64,000 nucleotides of DNA from positions 74,260-138,259 of the forward strand of contig JBDRBB010000003.1 of assembly GCA_043823065.1 (NCBI GenBank), written 5' to 3'. This stretch comes from Pseudomonadota bacterium (GTDB lineage Bacteria > UBA10199 > 2-02-FULL-44-16 > DYJF01). Positions 17,136-60,187 of this stretch are shown here, one piece after another. The number at the start of each line of letters is the position of its first letter. The first letter of the stretch is position 1. The notes under the pieces are model-generated. The model saw only the letters and a list, made by a program, of their open reading frames with translations. It did not search any database and was not told the origin of the DNA. The position numbers and the translations under genes are program-made.

Positions 17136-17161
17136 TTATCGCTGGTTATGAAAAAAGTTGC
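17136..17161 (-). promoter_or_regulatory. Putative sigma28-like promoter GCAAC-N15-CGATAA
   Basis: Minus strand taaGCAACttttttcataaccagCGATAA, 127 nt upstream of ATG 17009; same motif at four other orphan-region genes. Confidence 0.6.
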
Positions 17162-17178
17162 TTAAAAAAAGTGGGGGA

Positions 17179-18900
17179 TTAGGAAAGCCCTAAATATGCT
17201 AAAAACGAGGAAATTATTGTTTGATCTGCATTTGAGGCTGGTGCCATATTTACAGCCACAGGCGTTGCCACTGGCTGACTGGTTCTATTGGCAAAAAGAT
17301 GCGGATTTTCAGTTCTAAAAGTTTCAATATTGTTTTGGTAGGAATTAGTTACGGTAATATCAAGGCGTTCAACTGGTGGGCAACATAAAAGTTCGCCAAG
17401 AGCTGAAGCGCTAAACATACCTTCTATACCATGGTCCAGCGCAGTATGATTTACATGTTGGATATATCTTAAATTGTTAAGGGCTATATCTGGTAAGTTT
17501 ACTCTTCTTGGAGCTTCCACAAAGGTCATATACATAACATCTGAAAAATCTTCAAAAATAGAATCCCCTGTTGTAGGGGACATATGTGGTCTAACCAGAT
17601 CGGCAGTTGCGTTAAATCTAGCAATTAAACTTTGATATATTCTATTAGCATCTCTTAAACCATACGAGCTTTGACCTAAAAGTTGCATTACATAATTTAA
17701 CCATCCAGCTGGACGAAATGAGCTATCTATTCTACCCTCACGCAAAGCATAAACAGCAGCAATGCGCCGCATATTCTGCATAAAAGATTCACTCTCTTCT
17801 CTGGATGCCTCTCCACTTCTGGAACCAACCATAGCATCATACTCTTCTTCTAAATCTACCATTCTTGAGTCATACAGGGTCATTTCAGATTCAGAAATAT
17901 TTCTACCATAACGTAAAAAACTCATACCTTCATATAACAAACCCCAGGATTGAACGCTCAGATTATGCAAAGTTTGATTTTCTTCAGCAGTATGTGAATT
18001 TCTCAATTCTCCCGCAATAGATTGCCTTAAAGTTTCCAAACCAGAAACAGCATTTCTGATTCTAACAGAATCATTAGAATTAATATCTATTCTTAAGGAA
18101 GCTAATCTACTGGTGTCTCTTAAAATAATGTCTGCTGAATCTCTTTGGGCCACCAATTCATATAATCTTTGCGCTGCTCTTGGTGAATGATTCTCCTCAA
18201 AAAACTCTGCCAAGGTAACAGCGTCTTCATTGGAAAGCAAATTTCTATATTCTTCAATTGTGGAATAACCTTGGCCAAATCTTGCAACCAAAATTTCTTG
18301 TTCAAGTTGATCAACCGATTGTTCCCACCGTTGTTCCCGCATCGACACTACCGTTCTTTGTTGAGCTATCAATTCACTGACTATTCCCCAGTCATTAGCA
18401 TCTAGTTCACCTCTTAGCTCACTGCCACGTCTTCTAAGTTCATTATAGTTTCTACGACTAGCACAAATTACCTGATAATCATCTTCACTAATTTGAAAAT
18501 AATTCTCACCAGCATCTAAAACATTTTGTAATCCTGCTGAATCCGCAACAGACATCCTAAAAACTGATATTGCATCATCAAACTGTTGGGCACATTGATC
18601 ATCTTGCAAAATTATTGGCGGAATTTCTTCTGCCATTTCTTCTAGTTCTATTATTTGTTGATTTTCTGTTTCTTGAATTCTTGGTCTTGGTGGGGGGGCT
18701 GGATTTGGTCTTGGTTCTATGTAAATATCGTTGGGATGTGTGCGGGGTGTATAATTATTTCGTCCAACTTCCCCGCTTCTTTCAATTTCAAAATTAGGTT
18801 GTATTCTGGGGTTATTGAGTTGGCCTGGAGAACCGGGGGGGGTTCTGTTTGGGTCAACTCCTTGGTGAATTCCTTGAATACCTTCTCCACCTACATGCAT
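17179..18900 (-). CDS. Orphan protein (573 aa), short paralog 3 matching the N-terminal helical domain; zero Lys
   Basis: LYEGMSFLRY..., FVEAPRRVN..ALNNLRYI align with FVNGVRAVN..ALRNLRYL and FINGPRAAN..AIENLRFL of paralogs 1-2. Confidence 0.85.
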   Translation of the reverse strand: MHVGGEGIQGIHQGVDPNRTPPGSPGQLNNPRIQPNFEIERSGEVGRNNYTPRTHPNDIYIEPRPNPAPPPRPRIQETENQQIIELEEMAEEIPPIILQDDQCAQQFDDAISVFRMSVADSAGLQNVLDAGENYFQISEDDYQVICASRRNYNELRRRGSELRGELDANDWGIVSELIAQQRTVVSMREQRWEQSVDQLEQEILVARFGQGYSTIEEYRNLLSNEDAVTLAEFFEENHSPRAAQRLYELVAQRDSADIILRDTSRLASLRIDINSNDSVRIRNAVSGLETLRQSIAGELRNSHTAEENQTLHNLSVQSWGLLYEGMSFLRYGRNISESEMTLYDSRMVDLEEEYDAMVGSRSGEASREESESFMQNMRRIAAVYALREGRIDSSFRPAGWLNYVMQLLGQSSYGLRDANRIYQSLIARFNATADLVRPHMSPTTGDSIFEDFSDVMYMTFVEAPRRVNLPDIALNNLRYIQHVNHTALDHGIEGMFSASALGELLCCPPVERLDITVTNSYQNNIETFRTENPHLFANRTSQPVATPVAVNMAPASNADQTIISSFLAYLGLS

Positions 18901-19064
18901 AGGCAGTTCCTTAATGTCAGTTTTAGTCTATTGAATTTTCCAAAATTTCCGATGCATGTTTGATAACTTAATCAATATGACGCAATTGGTCAAGTTTAAA
19001 AATTAATATATCCTTGACTAAGAATATTAAAAGGAATTGAATTAGCATATCCCTTAATTTCTAA

Positions 19065-19091
19065 GCAACTTTTTTAAACTATAAGCGATAA
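19065..19091 (+). promoter_or_regulatory. Putative sigma28-like promoter GCAAC-N16-CGATAA
   Basis: taaGCAACttttttaaactataagCGATAA, 28 nt upstream of ATG 19119. Confidence 0.6.
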
Positions 19092-19118
19092 CAAGGATAA
19101 AGCTCAACAACCAGAATT

Positions 19119-58209: not shown

Positions 58210-58230
58210 ACTTCCTCCTTTGGTTATTTT

Positions 58231-58315
58231 CCCTCCCCCTTGATGGGGGAGGGTTAGGGTGGGGGTGAAACTATAAGTCACCCTCCCCTTCATCCCCTCC
58301 CCTCAAGGGAGAGGA
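58231..58315. repeat. REP-like doublet, family B, overlapping the 3' end of 58290-60083
   Basis: Near-identical to 25348-25422; supplies the final codons LSLEGRG-stop. Confidence 0.85.
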
Positions 58316-60083
58316 AAAACTCTGGATTCTCATCCAAGAAATTTCCTATATCTTGTAGCAAATGATATGCGCCAACTAGTAAAGCTAGCACTCCGCTGAT
58401 AGCTAATACACCTGCCTGTACACCAACTGGTAAACTAATAGTAACCCCTGCGCCAATTCCTATTTTCACAGCTACTTCTGTACCTAAAGCTAAAACAATA
58501 GCTGTTGCAAAATGTTCAGCAAAGATCACTGCGCCCAGAGCTAAGCTTGTTCCCACTATTGCCCGTTCCAAATGAGAAAACTGAAAACCACCTGCATCTT
58601 CAACTACGTTGACAACTTCTTGGTTGACCAAACTGTTAGGGATAAAAGCTATAGATAGAACTCCAATATTTGCTAAATGTTGGCCATAACCCAAAACTGT
58701 AGCATCTAAAAGACCTCTGGCACTTACTCCAGTTAGTTCACCAACATAACTTGCACCTGCTAGCATCATTGAATTTACTAACCCTACGCCCTGCCTAGCC
58801 AATGGATGAGCATTTTGCCCTCCTACCATTTCATCCATGATAAAATGGGTGGCACTACCTGCAACCATCATCTTGGCTGAAGGAGCAAGGCGATCAATGC
58901 TTGAAGTTATGCGGCCCCAAGAATTATATGCACCCGTGAACCTCTCCCGCGCACCTGCAAACATCTCTGTCCAAGAAGGCATACGTGGCTCGGCAACTGC
59001 AACAAGTTCACCATTAGGGCCAACACGTGCTGCAACCATGCGGCTTTGATTGTTACCAGCATGCCCGTTTTCTGCAGATCTATTGCACCTAGGCACTCTT
59101 CCCAGCATAACTCGCTTAGATTCTCCACCTTCTCCAACTTCACGACGTGCCATCTCACATGTTTCGCGAATTAGATTAAGGTATCTGTTACACATTTCAT
59201 TTATTCTATCTAAGCGTGCTTCAGCTTGTTCAAAACGCTGCTGGGCAGCTATTTTTACTTGATTTTCTCCAAACATCCTATTCCAATCTTCCAAGGCAAG
59301 CCTAAACTCTCCACGTGCAGCATCTCTCTCCAAAACCAGCAAAGCCACTAGAATTTCTCTGGCCACGGTTCTTTGCGGACAAGTTTCAGCTCTCTCTAAA
59401 GCATCCCAGGCTCCGTCTATGCCAGCATCTGCTTGTAAATTACGCAAAACTGACATTTCTCCTTCTATAAGAGGAACTATCCTGATTTGATCTGGTCTTT
59501 GCCTATCTTGAACCAACTCTGCTTCTACTTCTAAAAGAGCAATTAAGTTATTTTGAGCCTGCTGAACTTCTTGATAAGCACGCCTTCCACTTTCACCTAA
59601 GCTACCTTGATAATTATTGCGACGCCTAAGATCGGATCTGCTAATATAAAACATAGCTAATTGTCGCCTAAGAGAGAAGCGGGCTGCTTCAAGCTCTGCA
59701 TAAGCACTGCCCAGTCTTTGCTGAGAACCCATAGCCATAAAAACAGCCTCAGTTGGATGCTCTTGATTTAGAAAAAAGCGTGCTGCAGTTTGCACTTTTA
59801 CATTATTATCTGTATTATCTGAAGCGCTCCCATTTCTAAAAATTGCCAAAAAATTATTTGGCAATGGTGATCGGGCAGGATCCCAAAGACTAAATCCTTC
59901 TCCCTGATGACAACTCACCACCGTACTAAGCACAGATCCGCTGGATAAATCAGGAGTGGGTATAGCAGGAGCCTGCCTGACTGGCACAAGCTGTGAATTT
60001 CTAGCCTGGTCACCATTTGTCTGAATATTACTACTCCCGCCATTAACTTGTGAAGCTCTACTTATGTCACCTGCTGAATACAT
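58290..60083 (-). CDS. Orphan coiled-coil protein with long bilobed C-terminal hydrophobic region; Lys-poor
   Basis: 597 aa, starts MYSAGDIS, 5 Lys. Confidence 0.8.
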   Translation of the reverse strand: MYSAGDISRASQVNGGSSNIQTNGDQARNSQLVPVRQAPAIPTPDLSSGSVLSTVVSCHQGEGFSLWDPARSPLPNNFLAIFRNGSASDNTDNNVKVQTAARFFLNQEHPTEAVFMAMGSQQRLGSAYAELEAARFSLRRQLAMFYISRSDLRRRNNYQGSLGESGRRAYQEVQQAQNNLIALLEVEAELVQDRQRPDQIRIVPLIEGEMSVLRNLQADAGIDGAWDALERAETCPQRTVAREILVALLVLERDAARGEFRLALEDWNRMFGENQVKIAAQQRFEQAEARLDRINEMCNRYLNLIRETCEMARREVGEGGESKRVMLGRVPRCNRSAENGHAGNNQSRMVAARVGPNGELVAVAEPRMPSWTEMFAGARERFTGAYNSWGRITSSIDRLAPSAKMMVAGSATHFIMDEMVGGQNAHPLARQGVGLVNSMMLAGASYVGELTGVSARGLLDATVLGYGQHLANIGVLSIAFIPNSLVNQEVVNVVEDAGGFQFSHLERAIVGTSLALGAVIFAEHFATAIVLALGTEVAVKIGIGAGVTISLPVGVQAGVLAISGVLALLVGAYHLLQDIGNFLDENPEFFLSLEGRG

Positions 60084-60160
60084 AATGAAAATTCCTTATT
60101 TTTCACTCTGCTAGTTCAACTACATTTAATATAATAAAAATGTCTCTCTTTATGCGACAT

Positions 60161-60187
60161 ATATCGGTAGAGCAACAAAAAAGTTGC
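60161..60187 (-). promoter_or_regulatory. Putative sigma28-like promoter GCAAC-N16-CGATAT
   Basis: Minus strand GCAACttttttgttgctctacCGATAT, 78 nt upstream of ATG 60083. Confidence 0.6.

Follow-up and report, generated by a model that had tools for sequence, protein, structure and literature searches.

A conserved two-box, promoter-like element with a sigma-28-like -10 box precedes orphan genes, several of them lysine-depleted, in a 64-kb bacterial DNA segment and in related loci

The stretch of contig JBDRBB010000003.1 analysed here (assembly GCA_043823065.1, positions 74,260 to 138,259 of the forward strand; 64,000 nucleotides, nt, hereafter the window) contains five copies of a two-box sequence, GCAAC-N15-17-CGATAW, each located in front of a gene and directed toward it. 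This is a real, conserved and promoter-like element and, judging from the sequence, the five sites are very probably promoters of an alternative sigma factor, not of the housekeeping one. On balance we favour a factor of the sigma-28 (FliA) family with a changed -35 box, although on paper the element is a hybrid combining a -35 box of the type used by extracytoplasmic function (ECF) sigma factors with a -10 box of sigma-28 appearance. As proposed in the first-pass annotation and borne out by amino acid composition and an NCBIfam match, four copies head units encoding lysine-depleted proteins, while the fifth heads a pair composed of a TIGR02147 family gene and a lipoprotein gene.

Scanning of the window with the exact pattern GCAACN{15,17}CGATAW returned precisely the five copies described earlier against 0.16 expected, and none of 100 shuffled sequences reached this number. 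All five reside in intergenic DNA, which amounts to 3,514 nt (about 5.5% of the window) and for which 0.009 matches are expected from its base composition; out of 3,000 first-order Markov simulations of this DNA 20 contained a single match and none contained more than one. Equal frequency at random or coding positions, which the first-pass annotation had named as fatal to its proposal, is not what is observed. In a blind count of all pairs of 5-mers separated by 14-18 nt in intergenic DNA, with at least two G/C in each half, GCAAC..CGATA took the first rank, being present in five intergenic regions, which argues that the motif was not cherry-picked. Every CGATAW in the annotated intergenic DNA is paired with GCAAC, while variants with one mismatch fall nearly all within genes and therefore look like chance occurrences. 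Scores obtained with a matrix made from sites of the lineage are bimodal, the five sites gaining 25-32 bits and the next-best position of the window 18.6. Each copy has the orientation of the gene that follows and ends 27-126 nt before its start codon, the genes being those starting at 17009(-), 19119(+), 46987(-), 49343(+) and 60083(-) as had been claimed, and no copy stands before any housekeeping gene in the gene layout of the window. The five sites are as follows:

17136-17161, minus strand: promoter 1; GCAAC 17161-17157, 15-nt spacer, CGATAA 17141-17136; predicted start about 17128; 126 nt before 17009
19065-19091, plus strand: promoter 2; GCAAC 19065-19069, 16-nt spacer, CGATAA 19086-19091; predicted start about 19099; 27 nt before 19119
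47051-47077, minus strand: promoter 3; GCAAC 47077-47073, 16-nt spacer, CGATAA 47056-47051; predicted start about 47043; 63 nt before 46987
49242-49269, plus strand: promoter 4; GCAAC 49242-49246, 17-nt spacer, CGATAA 49264-49269; predicted start about 49277; 73 nt before 49343
60161-60187, minus strand: promoter 5; GCAAC 60187-60183, 16-nt spacer, CGATAT 60166-60161; predicted start about 60153; 77 nt before 60083

In an anchored alignment comprising 18 sites of the window and its relatives, the information is confined to [G/A]CAAC followed by TTTT(T), to CGAT(A)(A) preceded by (A/G)(C/G) and followed by T-A, and to an upstream A/T run, the rest being variable. The spacer between GCAAC and CGATAA ranges from 15 to 18 nt with 16 as the commonest length, and the A/T-rich run, located 5-9 nt upstream of GCAAC, is present at all five window sites. 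The T-tract after GCAAC accompanies four of the five, in agreement with the first-pass annotation, promoter 3 being devoid of it and reading GCAACATTAA. The -10 box of the window sites is CGATAA in four cases and CGATAT in one; the two bases before it are A[C/G], with C in three sites and G in two. Beyond the boxes and A/T tracts nothing is common to the five flanks. Upstream of promoter 5 a hairpin resembling a terminator (60445-60422) closes the preceding gene, and a tandem array of 5.2 copies of the 25-nt unit AAGCTGGAGGATGACACACAGAGGA with 96% matches occupies positions 60284-60414, likewise upstream of this promoter.

The phylogenetic frame for a comparison was provided by the TIGR02147 protein. 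An alignment-based scan of genome contigs found relatives of it, all in metagenome-assembled genomes (MAGs), while a single-protein scan of genome contigs with the same query gave no match. The nearest relatives (50-63% identity) are labelled Pseudobdellovibrionaceae, Deltaproteobacteria, Pseudomonadota or, implausibly, Nitrospira, and more distant ones belong to Bdellovibrionales, Oligoflexia, Bacteriovoracaceae and Fibrobacterota. The window comes from an uncultured Bdellovibrionota-like lineage, MAGs of the same kind being its closest relatives. The giant 1711-amino acid (aa) protein encoded behind promoter 1 belongs to a rare family, only eight relatives having been detected among 1.84 billion cluster representatives by exhaustive profile search, and word-indexed homologue searches with this protein and with the 597-aa protein behind promoter 5 returned the queries themselves only. 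Contigs with the giant-gene orthologue were compared for five of the eight relatives. In four of them the motif is found upstream of the orthologue, giving five sites since locus L089 has two paralogues, whereas in the exceptional L090 the giant gene is second in an operon. The sites conform to [G/A]CAACTTTT-N-CGAT(A/G)(A/C):

L086:3108: GCAACTTTTTTCATTATATGACGATAA; gene order as in the window, with an MFS gene downstream; 38% GC
L087:5832 (also L088): ACAACTTTTTTGACAAAGTGACGATAA; 49% GC
L089:5747: GCAACTTTTAGGGGCCCGGGCCGATGA; 55% GC
L089:12402: GCAACTTTTCGGTCAGGTTGCCGATAC; 55% GC
L091:563: ACAACTTTTTTTGAGATTTGCCGATAC; 53% GC

Intergenic DNA flanking these orthologous sites is unalignable across genomes of 38-55% GC, and the boxes are nevertheless kept, a phylogenetic footprint which we regard as the strongest evidence of function. 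In the relatives with higher GC content the -10 box is GCCGATA or GCCGATG at three of four sites, L087 reading GACGATAA; GCCGATA(A/C) occurs in full in L019, L047, L089 and L091, and [G/A]CAAC at all sites found in relatives. A purine-rich element (ATAGAGGG / ATGGAGGG / ATGGGGAGGGG), seen only at promoters of the giant-gene orthologues some 6-15 nt past CGATAA (about 17115-17128, minus strand, in the window and directly after the -10 box in L086, L087 and L091), may be a start-site region or a leader element.

Further sites precede unrelated orphan genes in L005/L010, L019, L008 (two sites), L013, L047 (L047:613) and L004. Three of them have the following downstream genes:

L005/L010:1095: before the gene of a 654-aa lysine-poor protein
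L019:27: before genes of a small secreted protein and a TIGR02147 family protein
L004 site: before the gene of a CAP-family secreted protein

No copy stands before the closest orthologues of the TIGR02147 gene (L001-L012), which have other upstream sequences. Over 1.3 Mb the lineage matrix gives 25 matches of at least 18 bits against 2.7 in shuffled sequences. Sites number about one per 13 kb for the window and, for loci selected on grounds other than the giant gene, about one per 35 kb. This density suggests a regulon of global, not narrow, scope and, if extrapolated, would correspond to around a hundred sites per genome.

In the register used for sigma-28, the window sites read GCAACTTT-N10-12-A[C/G]CGATAA against the E. 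coli FliA consensus TAAAGTTT-N11-GCCGATAA (PMC4183435). The -10 element matches GCCGATAA, and spacing and T-tract fit as well; up to about 11-12 of 16 consensus positions of the class 3 flagellar promoters of E. coli and Salmonella are shared in the form nnAAnTTT-N10-12-nSCGATAA. FliA-bound variants tabulated from E. coli chromatin immunoprecipitation sequencing (ChIP-seq) include TCAAC boxes as well as TCAACTTC-N11-GCCGATAT at modABC (Fitzgerald et al.), the latter differing from the window motif at few positions. A matrix built from strong E. coli ChIP-seq sites only ranks promoters 3, 4 and 5 as 2nd, 3rd and 7th of approximately 384,000 window positions, with 9.0-10.9 bits gained by their -10 blocks. 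Attack-phase FliA promoters of Bdellovibrio bacteriovorus have the form TTAAG-N16-CCGATA (Karunker et al. 2013, PMC3627812) and, being aligned on the -10 box, read cTTAAGttTtt...CCGATAAGt, also written cTTAAGttTtt..CCGATAAG; experimentally mapped starts lie 8 nt past the hexamer in 37 of 52 cases, and the regulon is large, non-flagellar and often composed of genes for large orphan or surface proteins (PMC3627812). The window sites resemble them in the CCGATAA-like -10 box, the T-rich run after the -35 pentamer, similar spacing, large or orphan non-flagellar targets and a related phylum-level neighbourhood. A functional analogy, if the lineage is host-associated, is offered by the sigma-28 of chlamydiae, which in the lack of flagella serves late promoters and times developmental or host-interaction genes, although its -35 box is the canonical TAAAGwww and not GCAAC.

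Several observations weigh against a sigma-28 assignment. Its TAAA core is absent, as the first-pass annotation had recognized: the window core GCAA agrees with it at two of four positions, albeit with the 10-12 nt spacing and TTT in place, and positions 1, 2 and 5 of the -35 box are G, C and C instead of T, A and G of class 3 promoters. The three well-ranked sites score 11.6-13.7 bits, as weak E. coli sites do (median 11.9) and below the strong ones (median 17.5), with GCAACTTT contributing +2.55 bits, within the top 2.9% of 8-mers. With the B. bacteriovorus matrix the -10 box is credited, but no more than 1.5-3 bits come from the -35 block and the five sites do not stand out, promoter 4 being 2nd, another 9th and the others lower; in comparison with the promoters of this bacterium, the window sites have GCAAC and not TTAAG, on average one base closer. 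Downstream genes in the window, unlike those of class 3, are not flagellar. An apparent canonical sigma-28 site noticed before TIGR02147 genes in two Bdellovibrionales MAGs (L020 and L042) was discerned by eye only, falls outside the top five matrix hits and was discarded. The earlier sigma-28-like reading thus holds for the -10 box, the spacing and the T-tract, but the identity of the sigma factor does not follow, in view of the weak -35 scores and of GCAAC being an ECF-type box.

Indeed, the same boxes may be read as a promoter of a group 4 (ECF) factor, with GCAAC as an AAC-type -35 box, for which G(G/C/T)AAC is typical, CGAT as the beginning of a -10 box of CGT/CGA type and the likeness to sigma-28 as a result of convergence, an assignment that we consider less probable, though a serious rival. 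Promoters of sigW, sigX and sigM of B. subtilis and of sigE of E. coli combine AAC and a run of T with CG(T/A) at about 16 nt. GCAAC, present at all five window sites, is identical to many -35 boxes of S. coelicolor sigE promoters, described as G[G/C]AAC-N17-CGTCTT (PMC6767563), which also have a similar spacer (16-17 nt) and a -10 box beginning with CG, and the little credit given to the -35 box by both FliA matrices points in the same direction. However, the window -10 box is CGATAA and not CGTCTT. Conservation in it extends over six to eight positions, (G/A)(C/G)CGATAA, which is the sigma-28 octamer, longer than and unlike the usual short ECF -10 boxes (CGTC, CGTA or GTC), and the third base is A in every site. 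ECF factors normally regulate their own synthesis, but among about 18 sites there is not one that heads a sigma/anti-sigma pair. No such operon linked to the sites and no gene of the sigma70 family was seen in 1.28 Mb of window and related loci, where tblastn with flagellin, MotA, FliA, RpoE and RpoD gave no match, and the window itself encodes neither a sigma factor nor a flagellar protein; in so small a sample this absence weighs little. The regulon also appears large for an ECF factor. We give more weight to sigma-28 because the conserved -10 positions are identical to its octamer, because the phylogenetic neighbourhood includes Bdellovibrio with its large non-flagellar FliA regulon, because the regulon appears large and because no sigma or anti-sigma gene adjoins any site.

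Less credible is the supposition that the boxes bind a transcription factor or another DNA-binding protein without constituting a promoter. Variation of the motif-to-start distance from 27 to 230 nt would agree with it, but the boxes are asymmetric, strictly oriented toward the gene, separated by 15-18 nt as -35 and -10 elements are, and accompanied on their upstream side by the A/T-rich tract; each box agrees with a recognition element of known sigma factors. Besides, consensus matches of sigma-70 type occur in these regions at chance level, so that no other promoter is evident there, and we consider a mere binding site improbable. The origin of the motif by chance, from duplicated upstream DNA or as a mobile repeat, brought to mind by the paralogous family of unit 1 and by the abundance of repeats in the window, is effectively refuted by the 0.009 copies expected, by flanks sharing only boxes and A/T tracts, and by persistence of the boxes across genomes of 38-55% GC while flanks diverge.

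The units headed by the motif comprise the following genes:

11874-17009, minus strand: unit 1, first gene; 1711-aa, practically lysine-free orphan by reading frame and composition (6 lysines, 131 arginines)
5695-11850, minus strand: unit 1, second gene; 2051-aa paralogue (5 lysines), 23 nt downstream of the 1711-aa gene
19119-20759, plus strand: unit 2; 546-aa lysine-poor protein (3 lysines) with C-terminal TPR repeats (Pfam TPR families)
44711-46987, minus strand: unit 3, first gene; 758-aa lysine-poor orphan by composition (7 lysines)
43318-44643, minus strand: unit 3, possible second gene; 441-aa lysine-poor orphan, 67 nt downstream of the 758-aa gene across a repetitive extragenic palindromic (REP)-like element
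49343-50203, plus strand: unit 4, first gene; TIGR02147/DUF4423 family protein
50200-51345, plus strand: unit 4, second gene; lipoprotein with a lipobox N-terminus, its start overlapping the stop of the TIGR02147 gene
58290-60083, minus strand: unit 5; 597-aa lysine-poor orphan (5 lysines) with three C-terminal hydrophobic segments

The 23-nt gap suggests that the 2051-aa gene, the product of which is 34% identical to the 1711-aa protein, forms an operon with the 1711-aa gene, and the 441-aa gene may be cotranscribed with the 758-aa one. The 1711-aa protein has no match in Pfam or NCBIfam and the 758-aa protein none in Pfam, NCBIfam or PDB; PDB sequence searches with the lysine-depleted proteins recovered TPR repeats only, and Rfam and tRNA scans of the window gave no matches.

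Ten proteins of the window lacking signal peptides contain altogether 36 lysines in 8,597 residues, a share of 0.42%, whereas lysine makes up 7.44% of 14 housekeeping proteins. Arginine in the ten is increased to 8.2%, and two of them have no lysine at all (0 of 1,045 aa and 0 of 573 aa). By composition, genes of this class occupy six segments:

2-3136, minus strand: lysine-depleted protein
5695-18900, minus strand: lysine-depleted proteins
19119-20759, plus strand: lysine-depleted protein
43318-46987, minus strand: lysine-depleted proteins
51416-54068, minus strand: lysine-depleted proteins
58290-60083, minus strand: lysine-depleted protein

The idea that the motif defines an effector set stands in so far as it heads four of the seven lysine-depleted units along with the TIGR02147-lipoprotein pair. 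It fails for the other three, namely 17179-18900(-), 52404-54068 with 51416-52381(-), and the gene ending at 3136(-), which have no motif and count against a simple correspondence between motif and composition. Moreover, lysine-normal orthologues elsewhere carry the motif, and hence it tracks gene families rather than lysine depletion. The giant-gene orthologue contains 0.4% lysine in L086 and 7.3% in L087; the motif thus predates the depletion, which is confined to the genome of the window and its closest relative, L086. A search for lysine-free reading frames in related loci was abandoned as uninformative, since loci with high GC content yield spurious frames of this kind.

Two of the motif-less cases have upstream sequences of their own. 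Upstream of the motif-less paralogue, a protein of 573 aa in the window and of 691 aa in L086, the sequence TTGACCAATTGCGTYATATTG is conserved at 18973-18993(-) of the window and at L086:816-836. It looks like the -35 region of a sigma-70-type promoter, and the paralogue appears to be under a control different from that of its neighbours. Upstream of the gene ending at 3136, in the region of 3247 on the minus strand, ACAACTTTTTTT offers a good -35-type box with no CGATAA at the right distance and a TTGACA hexamer instead, and may represent a promoter of another kind or the remnant of a site in decay. For the neighbouring mannose-6-phosphate isomerase gene the true start probably lies downstream of the annotated one (3217).

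Seven lysine-depleted proteins, five from the window and two from L086, have in common the N-terminal motif M-x-x-(G/A/N)-(G/A)-(E/D), which may be an export or processing signal. Examples are MIANGES, MFSGGES, MHVGGEG, MKCAGEI and MYSAGDI in the window and MHLGGES and MYSGAET in L086, and the carriers are:

11850, 17009, 18900, 46987 and 60083, all minus strand: starts of the five window genes
L086:892 and L086:3364: the two genes of L086

The products of 58290-60083(-), 44711-46987(-), 43318-44643(-) and 52404-54068(-) have no N-terminal signal peptide, but each has between one and three 19-mers of strong hydrophobicity, for the most part close to the C-terminus; in the 597-aa protein the hydrophobic stretch covers residues 508-565.

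The gene behind promoter 4 probably starts at 49349, and its product is a full-length member of TIGR02147 (245.3 bits against a cutoff of 50, residues 12-281) that also matches Pfam DUF4423 with E = 2e-38. A literature search gave no description of TIGR02147, nor of the GCAAC/CGATAA pair as a motif. In L003 the TIGR02147 gene is likewise followed by a gene for a homologous lipoprotein, and in L001 and L005 by genes for lipoproteins that were not aligned. Between promoter 4 and the gene the following feature is located:

49287-49307: perfect palindrome TTGTATTC-N5-GAATACAA, located 18 nt past the promoter 4 -10 box, at about +11 to +31 if transcription starts as predicted

The pattern GTATTC-N3-8-GAATAC occurs in 13 copies in nine related loci from distant lineages (L013, L014, L016, L019, L020, L028, L042, L052 and L069), with at least one copy per locus within about 100 nt upstream of a TIGR02147 family gene, and a GTATAC variant of the palindrome is found in another clade. 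The AlphaFold2 model of the protein (predicted local distance difference test score 82) is all-helical with a winged-helix-like element; its fold neighbours, none of them significant, are regulators of MarR, GntR and BusR types. Judged by this recurrence, the palindrome is probably the operator of the TIGR02147 protein, mediating autoregulation, and the simplest reading would be that of an autoregulated DNA-binding protein acting as a roadblock to transcription from the alternative-sigma promoter of its own gene. The same TGTATTC half-site is found in a perfect inverted repeat of 11 nt, TGTATTCTCTA / TAGAGAATACA (47203-47213 and 47245-47255, 31 nt apart). This repeat lies a short distance upstream of the lipoprotein gene 47275, a neighbour of the TIGR02147 gene, and may be either a leader hairpin or another target of this regulator.

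The lipoprotein of unit 4 belongs to a second composition class of four acidic proteins (47275-49083(+), 50200-51345(+), 60517-62469(-) and 62496-63986(-)), low in both lysine (0.2-1.3%) and arginine (1.4-1.6%), and is the only one of them preceded by the motif. N-termini resembling those of lipoproteins or signal peptides are found in 47275, 50200 and 60517 and Big_5 domains in 47275 and 60517, while 47275 and 62496 are paralogues with 43% identity. REP-like palindromic repeats (e.g. GTCATTCCCGCG..GGGAATC and CCGTTCGCCCTGAGCTTGTCGAAGGG) are scattered through the intergenic DNA:

near 22560-22650: REP-like repeats
near 28900-28960: REP-like repeats
near 41680-41750: REP-like repeats
near 44650-44700: REP-like repeats
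near 56190-56270: REP-like repeats

In the product of the gene 56287-57264(-), a Y1 transposase domain of IS200-like type is joined to a helix-turn-helix of DnaA type, the arrangement known from REP-associated tyrosine transposases.

If the sigma-28 assignment is correct, the family member of this lineage would have moved its -35 preference from TAAAG/TTAAG to GCAAC, with no change in the T-tract, in the -10 box (G/A)(C/G)CGATAA or in the spacing of 11 nt counted in sigma-28 register. For polymerase with this factor, GCAACTTT would be the contact at about -35 and CGATAA that at about -10, with transcription starting approximately 8 nt past CGATAA and leaders of roughly 20-120 nt. The factor would thereby switch on together dispersed lineage-specific genes, perhaps from the order of a hundred promoters per genome, which in the window are those of giant and mid-sized lysine-depleted proteins without signal peptides and of the TIGR02147 regulator with its lipoprotein; expression of the motif-headed genes may be stage-specific. 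The TIGR02147 protein would probably add negative feedback via the palindrome just downstream of its own promoter. As a tentative broader proposal, the lineage may have shifted the -35 recognition of a sigma-28-type factor from TTAAG/TAAAG to GCAAC, or acquired a sigma-28/ECF hybrid specificity, and may employ this factor to turn on globally an arsenal of orphan proteins that lack signal peptides and were purged of lysine in the sub-lineage of the window.

The motif is a simple conserved tag for coregulated genes in genomes available only from metagenomes, the tagged genes being nearly all unannotated orphans. If FliA is the factor in charge, its regulon, already extended beyond flagella in Bdellovibrio, can also change the -35 code and would be linked to a family of giant proteins practically free of lysine; in the case of an ECF factor, the -10 box would be an unusual look-alike of that of sigma-28. 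Should the broader proposal be true, the motif would serve as a sequence handle for listing the whole arsenal from MAGs, and the purge of lysine would make sense for proteins that are sent into another cell and for which lysine is a disadvantage there.

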